Positions 1 to 2,787 of a stretch of 64,000 nt of DNA are shown piece after piece. The notes under the pieces are model-generated. The model ran no database searches. It saw only the letters and a program-made list of their open reading frames with translations, and was not told the origin of the DNA. The position numbers and the translations under genes were made by a program. The number at the start of each line of letters is the position of its first letter. Positions within the stretch are counted from its first letter, which is position 1. Where the stretch lies: the NCBI RefSeq assembly GCF_003334315.1, contig NZ_QOWR01000010.1. One strand, given 5' to 3'. This DNA comes from Escherichia coli. GTDB taxonomy: Bacteria; Pseudomonadota; Gammaproteobacteria; Enterobacterales; Enterobacteriaceae.

Positions 1-30
1 AACTTGAGGAATTATACTCCCCAACAGATG
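1..30 (+). promoter_or_regulatory. soxS promoter with partial SoxR operator (window starts inside the inverted repeat AACTTGAGG; -10 TATACT at 14-19)
   Basis: Sequence aacttgaggaattatactcc matches the right half of the known SoxR palindrome overlapping the soxS -10; the left half lies outside the window. Confidence 0.8.
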
Positions 31-65
31 AATTAACGAACTGAACACTGAAAAGAGGCAGATTT

Positions 66-389
66 ATGTCCCATCAGAAAATTATTCAGGATCTTATCGC
101 ATGGATTGACGAGCATATTGACCAGCCGCTTAACATTGATGTAGTCGCAAAAAAATCAGGCTATTCAAAGTGGTACTTGCAACGAATGTTCCGCACGGTG
201 ACGCATCAGACGCTTGGCGATTACATTCGCCAACGTCGCCTGTTACTGGCCGCCGTTGAGTTGCGCACCACCGAGCGTCCGATTTTTGATATCGCAATGG
301 ACCTGGGTTATGTCTCGCAGCAGACCTTCTCCCGCGTTTTCCGTCGGCAGTTTGATCGCACTCCCAGCGATTATCGCCACCGCCTGTAG
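66..389 (+). CDS. soxS: SoxS, AraC/XylS-family superoxide-response transcriptional activator (107 aa)
   Basis: ORF track 66..389; protein MSHQKIIQDLIAWIDEH... recognised as SoxS; ATG start, TAG stop at 387-389. Confidence 0.95.
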   Translation: MSHQKIIQDLIAWIDEHIDQPLNIDVVAKKSGYSKWYLQRMFRTVTHQTLGDYIRQRRLLLAAVELRTTERPIFDIAMDLGYVSQQTFSRVFRRQFDRTPSDYRHRL

Positions 390-391
390 TT

Positions 392-1978
392 TTATTGCCC
401 GCGCGTTAACTCCCGCGCGGGTAATTGCTCCATCCATTGCATAAACACCTGCGGCGGCATCGCCTTCGCAAAGAACCATCCCTGGCAATAGCGCACGCCG
501 CGTTTGCGCAGCCAGTTAACCTGCTCCTCAGTTTCGACGCCTTCAGCGATCGTTTTTAACCCCAGGCTGTGCGCCAGCTCGATGATGTGTTCCGCAATCA
601 AATGACTGGTTTTGTGGGTGGTCAGCGTTTCAACAAACGATTTGTCGATTTTCAAAATATCGACATTCAATGATTTAAGGTTATGCAAGTTAGAGTAGCC
701 AATACCAAAATCATCAATTGCCACTTCGTAACCTGCCTGGCGGAAAGCCAGAATAATCGGCGTCATTTTTTCGACATCAAGAAATGCATGCTCAGTCACT
801 TCAAATTTAATTTGCTGCGGACGCACCGCGTATTGCTCTGTTTTCTGATTGATTCGCGCTATCAACCGTGACGTATGAAAATCGGAGGCCGACAGGTTAA
901 TAGAAACATAGCGATCTGCATGTGTTGCCAGGTAATCGCCCAGATCGCGGAAGACATTATCAATAACATAATCAGTTATCTGTTCTATCATCCCCTCCTT
1001 TTCTGCCAGCGGAATAAACTCTGCCGGATTCATTATTTGCCCCTGCTCACCAGGCCAACGTAACAACGCTTCAGCGCCGATACATTTTTCTGTTTTGATA
1101 TCGATTATTGGCTGGTAATAAAGACAAAGTTGATGTTTTTCGAGGGCGCGTTGCAATTTACGTTTGGGAGATAAATAGTTTTGTCGAATACGTAGCCAGA
1201 GTAATAGCAGAACAAGACTCCCCAAAATACCGGCGGGCAACGCAAAAATAAGATGATTATAAAAATGGGTTATAAGACGTTGATATGAAGTCGCAACAAT
1301 GGCTGCAATTGGGCGTTTTGTCGAATAAACTGTCGCATATAAATAGCCATTTCTTTGTACGGTTAAATCCTTCAAATGAATCAGCGGAGAAAACGTTGCT
1401 GCCGAGGCCTCTTTGCTTAACGAGAAAAAGGTTTTCGTCACCGTATCATACACACCCCATTGCAATGTCGGGTCATCAGACATCACTTCACTCCAGAAGA
1501 GAGGGTTGATAACCGCCACATAATTTCCCCGCTGCATATAGGTCATTTTATAGCCAGAGAAAAAAGGCGTATCGCGGTAATAATAGATAGAAACGTTAGG
1601 TTCACGCTTATAATCGGCCGGTGCAATCGTATAGCCGTTTACAGGCGCTATCAGCGATGAGCATAAAAAATGGTTATCACGGGCATAGATCAATTCATTA
1701 ATATAAAGATAGCCACGAATAATATTCAACATTCGCTTTTGATGGGCTGGAGTGCAAACTTGCCCCTGATAGCGTTCAGCTGCATCGCTCACTAAATCTG
1801 CCTGGCGAATGACCAGCTCGGATTTATCCAGTGCCAGTTGAGCAAAGGTTCGGAGCTGATTATTCACTTCTGATTTTGCCCAAAGGAAGGCAATCCATAG
1901 CGAAAGAATGATGGGAAAGAGAACTAAAAAGATAATGCCCGGCAACGCCAGTAATTGGTGTCGTGCACGATGACTCAT
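392..1978 (-). CDS. pdeC: c-di-GMP phosphodiesterase PdeC (YjcC), membrane CSS-domain plus EAL domain
   Basis: ORF track 392..1987 (531 aa); hydrophobic N-terminus, EAL motif (GAEALLRWP); start probably the Met at codon 4; synteny convergent with soxS. Confidence 0.9.
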
Positions 1979-2407
1979 TGCTATCAATTTCCTGCCTGTT
2001 TATACCCGGCCATTGTAAGGTGAAAACCCTGGGTACCGACGTCTTTAGATAAATCTTACGGTATAAATAGCACTTTTGCCTGATTTGAAATTGATACCTT
2101 TCTAATCGTCACCTGGATGAAAATAATTCATTGATATTCAAAATTAATTTCCTACAGGAATGCAGAGGCGGCGGGAAGATATGCCCTTAATGCCACTGAA
2201 AAACCACATAATCTGTACAGCAATAAAAGTCACGGCCTAATATGGCTAACAAACAATCAATTGTGATATAGTTCACAAAATTAATGAAACAAACAGAGTG
2301 TTTCATTTTTGTGTTCTGCAAGCCCCGCGATAGCCAGAGTGTACCACGCCTCCCGTGAACAACGCCGCGCTGTCCAGGGCATCGGCTCTTTTCAGAGGAA
2401 TTGTTTG

Positions 2408-2689
2408 ATGGCTACCCTCACCACTGGCGTGGTTCTTCTTCGCTGGCAACTTCTTAGTGCCGTAATGATGTTTCTGGCCAGCACACTCAACATCCGTTTT
2501 CGTCGGTCTGATTATGTCGGGCTTGCGGTGATCAGCAGCGGTCTGGGCGTTGTTTCCGCCTGTTGGTTCGCAATGGGGTTGCTTGGCATCACAATGGCGG
2601 ACATCACCGCTATCTGGCATAACATCGAGTCGGTGATGATAGAAGAGATGAATCAGACACCGCCACAATGGCCAATGATTTTGACCTGA
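2408..2689 (+). CDS. yjcB: small inner-membrane protein YjcB (93 aa)
   Basis: ORF track 2309..2689; internal ATG at 2408 gives the 93-aa hydrophobic protein MATLTTGVVLLRW...; synteny. Confidence 0.8.
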   Translation: MATLTTGVVLLRWQLLSAVMMFLASTLNIRFRRSDYVGLAVISSGLGVVSACWFAMGLLGITMADITAIWHNIESVMIEEMNQTPPQWPMILT

Positions 2690-2695
2690 TACGTA

Positions 2696-2725
2696 GAAGC
2701 CTCCATAACGGAGGCTTCTTTTTTA
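2696..2725 (+). terminator. rho-independent terminator after yjcB (hairpin gaagcctcc-ataac-ggaggcttc followed by a T-run)
   Basis: Perfect 9-bp GC-rich stem then tttttt read directly from the sequence. Confidence 0.75.
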
Positions 2726-2787
2726 TGGCTGGCAGATGCTTTAATCATCCACCTTAAAACAATATAACCTATTGTTTTAATGACAAA

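Follow-up and report, generated by a model that had tools for sequence, protein, structure and literature searches.

A conserved stem-loop of the soxS-sense RNA encoded within the last codons of the convergent gene pdeC in Escherichia coli

The soxS and pdeC (yjcC) genes of Escherichia coli converge, and a GC-rich hairpin lies where they meet. Our comparative analysis argues that this hairpin is genuine and under selection as a structure of the soxS-sense RNA. On balance it is probably a conserved soxS RNA stem-loop that forms or protects the 3′ end of the soxS mRNA, and the evidence for this reading comes from the geometry of the locus, from covariation and strand bias across genera, from genomes in which the hairpin is no longer part of pdeC, and from the composition of the RNA on either side of the stem.

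Convergence of soxS and pdeC and geometry of the hairpin

All positions refer to the window, that is, the whole 64-kb stretch of E. coli DNA that was analysed (Table 1). The first-pass annotation of the window had placed the soxS and pdeC stop codons 2 bp apart, and had described a stem with an 8-nt loop just beyond the soxS stop. The spacing was confirmed by direct reading, by the ORF listing and by the RefSeq annotation of E. coli genomes, in which the same 2-bp gap is found, and the arms of the stem were present exactly as described. The soxS stop codon is TAG in this window and TAA in K-12-type strains. The pdeC ORF extends to position 1987, the annotated start of the 528-aa protein being at 1978.

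With only 2 bp between the two stops, overlap of the soxS and pdeC transcripts is unavoidable, as had been claimed from the arrangement, and ExcludonFinder (NAR 2025, PMC12288877, Table 1) already counts the pair among the convergent excludons, having detected it in at least 50% of 58 MG1655 transcriptomes. A comparative scan, in which one genome per species was taken, yielded 80 soxS loci from the Enterobacteriaceae. A convergent pdeC gene ends between −16 and +15 nt from the soxS stop in 65 of them; the coding regions of the pair overlap in 26 loci, and the gap is exactly 2 bp in 18, all from Escherichia and Citrobacter.

Table 1. Features at the convergent ends of soxS and pdeC (positions in the window)
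Feature	Position	Strand	Remarks
soxS CDS, 107 aa	66–389	+	stop TAG at 387–389; read directly and from the ORF listing
Spacer between both stop codons	390–391		2 bp
pdeC (yjcC) CDS, 528 aa	392–1978	−	stop TAA at 394–392 (reverse complement TTA)
Stem-loop of the soxS-sense RNA	394–425	+	perfect GC core 398–405/414–421, loop 406–413
PdeC codons 516–528, variable C-terminal tail	395–433	−	hairpin in reverse complement at codons 520–527
C-rich, G-poor stretch, candidate Rho-loading region	422–579	+	untranslated soxS read-through RNA

The core of the stem is a perfect, all-GC helix of 8 bp, formed by CCCGCGCG and CGCGCGGG, and on the + RNA the helix lengthens to 12 bp (394–405 paired with 414–425). 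The stem (8–12 bp, −19 to −21 kcal/mol) begins 5–9 nt 3′ of the soxS TAG. As a 28-nt + strand hairpin the element folds at −19.1 kcal/mol with a z-score of −4.25, and none of 200 shuffles was as stable. It is the sole perfect all-GC 8-bp hairpin within the 64-kb window, for which 100 dinucleotide shuffles gave an expectation of 0.15.

A search of Rfam returned no match overlapping 384–425 at E ≤ 1, and only two weak, irrelevant matches elsewhere. We rejected a REP-type repeat as the identity of the element, because the window contains a single copy of it and the 70-nt region around the hairpin has one place per E. coli genome. A long-range helix between soxS codons and positions 446–463, which appears in the minimum free energy (MFE) structure of the E. 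coli region 360–480, was also rejected, as it is not kept in an alignment of 18 sequences.

Conservation, covariation and strand of action

The hairpin, recognizable by the motif GCCCGC...GCGGGC, occurs in Escherichia, Salmonella, Citrobacter and Intestinirhabdus at an identical offset from the soxS stop; many other Enterobacteriaceae, for example Enterobacter and Klebsiella, are without this particular hairpin. Within E. coli, the 70-nt region is kept at 97% identity or more in 5423 of 5426 complete genomes, and in the one divergent allele that was inspected two stem positions are altered, both of them giving G-U pairs.

Covariation was assessed on 23 phylogenetically related sequences, drawn from four genera and aligned without gaps. 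Paired cells make up 85.9% of this alignment as against 78.5% in shuffles, of which none in 500 reached the observed value, and sliding the partners along the sequence lowers pairing to 33–50%. Compensatory changes are found at four pairs, namely 21–50 (UA 13, CG 7), 29–42 (five pair types), 28–43 and 31–40. RNAalifold recovered a 9-bp core at 395–403/416–424 that is both conserved and covarying across genera, and in a wider, 131-nt alignment of 18 sequences this was the only helix with compensatory changes.

A palindrome can in principle fold in either transcript, and the strand of action was judged from shuffle-normalised z-scores and from counts of G-U against A-C cells inside the helix. 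A raw comparison of MFE over the whole region was rejected as a strand test, as control regions proved equally asymmetric, in both directions; of the folding measures, only composition-controlled z-scores set the region apart from the controls. Over the 75 nt 3′ of the soxS stop, the mean z-score in the hairpin clade is −2.54 on the + strand and −0.52 on the − strand, and three control regions inside pdeC gave values of about −0.2 to −1.1. Genera with different hairpins also carry an excess of + strand structure (z = −1.9).

Inside the helix, the nine core pairs of the 23 sequences comprise 161 Watson–Crick cells, 40 cells that are G-U on the + RNA and three that are A-C, which correspond to G-U on the − RNA. 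Core pairing accordingly stands at 97% when the sequences are read as + RNA, at 79% as − RNA and at 78% as DNA. Independent G-U events number roughly ten on the + strand versus three on the − strand and, the sequences being related, this test is suggestive rather than conclusive in favouring the + RNA. The + hairpin is also more stable than its − counterpart in 21 of the 23 sequences (mean −19.7 vs −14.1 kcal/mol). By covariation, G-U bias and z-scores alike, the hairpin behaves like an element of the soxS-sense RNA, in agreement with its initial assignment to the soxS side.

The C-terminal tail of PdeC

Because pdeC is read the opposite way through the element, its last codons spell out the hairpin in reverse complement, and the element encodes PdeC residues 520–527 (P-A-R-E-L-T-R-G). 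Through the stem, codons are paired with codons: Pro CCC faces Gly GGG, and Ala GCG faces Arg CGC. Pfam places a CSS-motif domain at residues 39–243 and an EAL domain at residues 273–505 of the 528, and in 68 aligned PdeC proteins conservation continues to about W515 and is followed by a variable tail of 6 to about 24 residues. In genera with a 16-nt gene overlap, PdeC finishes with (Q/H)AEI, which is what the last soxS codons give when read antisense. The tail of PdeC is thus whatever the strand complementary to the soxS 3′ region happens to encode, up to the first stop codon.

The codon usage of the stem stands out from a protein that is itself divergent, with only 62–66% PdeC identity between E. 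coli and Citrobacter. Among 92 conserved fourfold-degenerate pdeC codons, only 5.4% have the same third base in 90% or more of the sequences; in the stem, Pro520 is CCC in 17 of 17 sequences and Gly527 is GGG in 15 of 16, both of them rare codons, and the third base of Ala521 varies, covarying with its stem partner. Some of the compensatory stem changes alter PdeC amino acids. We prefer the reading in which the RNA structure would be the selected feature and the PdeC tail a tolerated passenger. The suggestion that the hairpin constrains the C-terminus of PdeC thus holds, with a qualification: the hairpin dictates the codons of the tail, with the third positions of Pro520 and Gly527 frozen, but the constraint falls on a hypervariable, evolutionarily expendable tail past the EAL domain, which is lost in 306 of 5426 genomes.

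This loss is due to a single nonsense allele, Q518* (CAA to TAA; codon 518 occupies 425–427, with the change at 427), carried by about 6% of the complete E. coli genomes, Nissle 1917 among them. It shortens PdeC by 11 residues, after which the hairpin is unaltered and intergenic, and the RefSeq annotation of pdeC in these genomes follows the early stop. The hairpin is likewise retained where pdeC has been deleted, which happened three times independently and up to separate positions (+68, +84 and about +35 nt from the soxS stop), in Escherichia sp. MOD1-EC7003, S. enterica subsp. arizonae and Intestinirhabdus alba. These genomes demonstrate, at the level of sequence, a hairpin that is independent of pdeC coding.

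Proposed formation of the soxS mRNA 3′ end

The 3′-end function and the involvement of Rho that we infer for the stem-loop can be set out as a short series of events. RNA polymerase leaving soxS would be unable to stop within 2 bp and would continue antisense into pdeC. As the stem-loop lacks a U-tract, termination would probably be mostly Rho-dependent, taking place on the untranslated, C-rich RNA at about 422–580 and within a few hundred nucleotides. Exonucleases working in the 3′-to-5′ direction would then shorten the RNA as far as the stable stem, so that a defined and protected end would be left near 422–430.

The candidate Rho-loading region has C/G ratios of 1.87, 1.56 and 1.44 in successive 78-nt windows, the first of them at 422–499, compared with a 90th percentile of 1.53 for the window as a whole; a rut-like C/G excess is, however, a weak sign, as the antisense strands of genes are often C-rich. 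The − strand RNA beyond the pdeC stop is G-rich, with a C/G ratio of 0.59. Stable stem-loops without U-runs are known to end Rho-dependent transcripts, with rut sites directly downstream, and in this class the stem-loop blocks PNPase and RNase II (Dar & Sorek 2018). Like the members of that class, the soxS stem-loop is without a U-run and sits just past the coding sequence, and the C-rich stretch after it is a possible counterpart of their rut sites; unlike them, both the stem-loop and the presumed rut are embedded in the coding sequence of a convergent neighbour. By analogy, the missing U-tract and the downstream C-rich tract would best fit the protective stem-loops of Rho-terminated mRNAs.

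Published 3′-end maps bear on this model to a limited degree. In Term-seq data from unstressed MG1655 (Adams 2021), the only 3′ end listed for this locus, a strong one, lies at the soxS start codon, with none at the hairpin or in yjcC/pdeC; since expression of soxS is low in unstressed cells, the lack of an end here does not decide the matter. The Rho-region table of the same study has no entry for soxS, yjcC or pdeC, and the supplements of the SMRT-Cappable-seq operon study make no mention of soxS, yjcC or pdeC.

The main alternative to a protective stem-loop is that soxS ends in a classical intrinsic (Rho-independent) terminator, a role that the first-pass annotation implied for the hairpin and in which it would release RNA polymerase at about 425–432. 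The element resembles intrinsic terminators in its GC-rich stem, in its position a few nucleotides past the stop and in being conserved on the upstream gene's sense strand, and the ExcludonFinder authors state that 146 of their 165 E. coli convergent excludons have overlapping terminators predicted by TransTermHP, a result that they do not give for pdeC-soxS individually. It differs from them in what follows the stem. Neither the + strand tail, UAAUUGCUCC, nor the − strand tail, CAAUAAAACU, has a U-run, and the former scores 1.3–1.6 against 7.15 for a perfect U-run. Across relatives the tail scores range from 0.2 to 2.0, the best being that of Salmonella, whose tail, GUUUGUUGU, is moderately U-rich and counts in favour of a terminator; the tract is absent in Escherichia and in Citrobacter, which has practically no U 3′ of the stem. 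A scan for consensus terminators found no site at the hairpin. A ribosome terminating at 387–389 would also cover the 5′ arm, which begins at 394. With the U-tract absent, the consensus scan empty and no end at the hairpin in Term-seq of unstressed cells, the terminator reading is not supported and we regard it as unlikely; both a protective stem-loop and a weak intrinsic terminator would make the hairpin a soxS 3′-end element. A more doubtful possibility is a regulatory excludon, in which strong induction of soxS would bring polymerases and antisense transcripts into pdeC and lower PdeC by collision or through RNase III, with the hairpin tuning the read-through. The presence of pdeC-soxS among the convergent excludons of MG1655, the conservation of tight convergence across species and the rise of soxS by about 10-fold, to the top transcript percentile, minutes after paraquat would all suit such an arrangement. 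However, a 2-bp gap forces an overlap call in any coverage-based method, and the listing is uninformative on regulation. In K. pneumoniae, yjcC is induced by paraquat and depends positively on SoxRS, its mRNA going down when soxRS is deleted, a change of opposite sign to that expected of such an excludon; in E. coli followed over time after paraquat, yjcC falls in a ‘smaller or delayed’ response cluster; and the hairpin is kept where pdeC is deleted. The pair is thus like other convergent excludons in that its transcripts overlap, and unlike the definition of an excludon in that the Klebsiella data, from a genus in which the gene overlap differs from that of E. coli (−16 nt), point to co-induction of yjcC and soxS and not to mutually exclusive expression. 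It is also unlike excludons that overlap only in a UTR, as the soxS element sits in pdeC coding sequence.

Two further explanations move the function away from soxS, or deny it. The palindrome might act for pdeC or as DNA, whether as a 3′ stabiliser, a translation-termination pause, a bidirectional terminator, or a protein-binding or cruciform site, and the perfect E. coli palindrome does also fold in the − RNA, at −18.7 kcal/mol. We consider such roles very improbable in view of the lower pairing across genera as − RNA or DNA than as + RNA, the weak − strand z-score, the persistence of the hairpin without pdeC and the lack of a second copy in the window. The + strand 5′ flank, GUUUUAUU, is U-rich, and the − strand tail past the stem, CAAUAAAAC, is therefore A-rich, with a score of 0.21. 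Bidirectional terminators reportedly lie between convergent genes, and one palindromic hairpin common to a convergent pair is a likeness to them; this identity was rejected, since the flanks GUUUUAUU and CAAUAAAAC provide no A-tract and U-tract and conservation favours one strand. Lastly, the hairpin could be without function, a palindrome that arose by chance or as a by-product of the amino acids in the tail of PdeC. It does lie wholly in coding sequence in this window, and short palindromes do arise at random, the window containing 51 perfect 8-bp hairpins of any composition (9.7 expected). This explanation is largely refuted by the compensatory changes, which include amino-acid-changing ones, by the frozen rare codons CCC and GGG in a tail that is otherwise hypervariable and outside the EAL domain, by the unaltered state of the hairpin where it is non-coding, and by the rarity of all-GC 8-bp hairpins.

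Stem-loops of transcript ends that lie within a convergent neighbour are a known class, the overlap of soxS with pdeC is already catalogued, and the locus presents no new kind of mechanism. In the searchable literature, which does not extend to the 1991 soxRS sequence papers that may mention the dyad, we found no prior report of the hairpin, of its covariation and strand bias, of its persistence without pdeC or of the writing of the PdeC tail, and nothing specific on the soxS 3′ UTR or on Rho acting at soxS. The locus is a clean natural case in which an RNA element of one gene is selected and the overlapping protein tail of its neighbour is a passenger. SoxS acts fast and is short-lived as a master regulator of tolerance to superoxide and antibiotics; the making and protection of its mRNA end therefore affect how sharply the response is turned on and off. 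For engineering, changing the last codons of pdeC can alter soxS expression, and vice versa. A more far-reaching scenario, which we put forward as a long shot, would couple the soxS burst under superoxide to c-di-GMP signalling: read-through set by the hairpin would transiently lower PdeC, by collision or by RNA duplex formation, and raise c-di-GMP, and in parallel selection on the soxS-sense fold would repeatedly have rewritten the C-terminus of PdeC across the Enterobacteriaceae.

The passenger status of the tail also bears on how C-terminal variants of PdeC with reported links to biofilm phenotypes (PMC10459773) are to be read. Q518* is the C1552T allele that has been reported in strains Tob1 and Fec67. 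In one experimental paper, alleles that are 11 residues shorter are reported to show lower apparent phosphodiesterase activity, but several other substitutions are also present in them.

Configurations of the soxS–pdeC junction in other species

In 15 species, among them Klebsiella, Raoultella, Trabulsiella, Yokenella and Pluralibacter, soxS is longer by two codons and overlaps pdeC by 16 nt (soxS loci L022, L025, L026, L033, L035, L039, L040, L044, L045, L056, L058, L064, L071, L072 and L078). The PdeC protein ends in (Q/H)AEI in all of these species, a C-terminus that corresponds to the last soxS codons read antisense.

In genera that lack a hairpin of the E. coli type, pdeC contains another soxS-sense stem-loop, formed by GCUGCUGCCAGG...CCUGCGGCGGC and derived from the PPQ and QQQ codons of the gene. 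This hairpin includes two U-G pairs and has a predicted stability of −16 to −19 kcal/mol. The E. cloacae group shows a T..T to C..G double change that gives the stem one more base pair and replaces one E and one T of PdeC by A. The tight convergent arrangement itself is interrupted by insertion in four loci of Kosakonia and its relatives (L049, L052, L055 and L057), where 449–2814 bp of other DNA separate soxS from pdeC.

Hairpins in and around the soxS–pdeC–yjcB–ssb region
Feature	Position	Strand	Location or loci
GCUGCUGCCAGG...CCUGCGGCGGC hairpin	+20 to +52 nt past the soxS stop	+	L028, L031, L069 and further loci of the Enterobacter clade
AT-rich perfect 9-bp hairpin, AATGAAACA...TGTTTCATT, then TTTTGTG	window 2283-2315		Between the pdeC start and yjcB
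First yjcB–ssb hairpin	window 2695-2719		Between convergent yjcB and ssb
Second yjcB–ssb hairpin	window 2755-2779		Between convergent yjcB and ssb

Variation of pdeC within E. coli

The nonsense variant Q518* (CAA to TAA at window position 427, pdeC codon 518) is present in 306 of the 5426 complete E. coli genomes, including that of Nissle 1917, and co-occurs with E517G to give a PdeC product of 517 aa (L082 and L083). The same allele has been described in strains Tob1 and Fec67, for which a lower apparent phosphodiesterase activity was reported. Genome matches to window positions 392-1978 also revealed an IS1 insertion within pdeC in some strains (QL57EC and CUVET25-1155), and in TUM9757 the best-scoring place matches only positions 1102-2400, with a second matching place elsewhere in the genome. 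From the IS1 insertions and the partial match in TUM9757, pdeC appears to have been disrupted repeatedly within the species.

The soxS leader and hairpins beyond pdeC

The published Term-seq map of Adams 2021 places a strong RNA 3′ end, with a score of 43001, at MG1655 position 4277382(−). This nucleotide corresponds to window position 67, the T in the ATG of soxS. The location of this 3′ end implies that unstressed cells contain an abundant short leader RNA of approximately 40 nt, spanning the soxS 5′ UTR and ending at the start codon (window positions 26-67). The main text of Adams 2021 does not discuss the 3′ end at the soxS ATG.

The two hairpins between yjcB and ssb are probably the terminators of these genes. 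A weak match to the Rfam family ‘Phe_leader’ at window positions 2635-2724, which with 27.7 bits falls short of the threshold of 55, is attributable to the first of the pair. The AT-rich hairpin upstream of pdeC is terminator-like on both strands.
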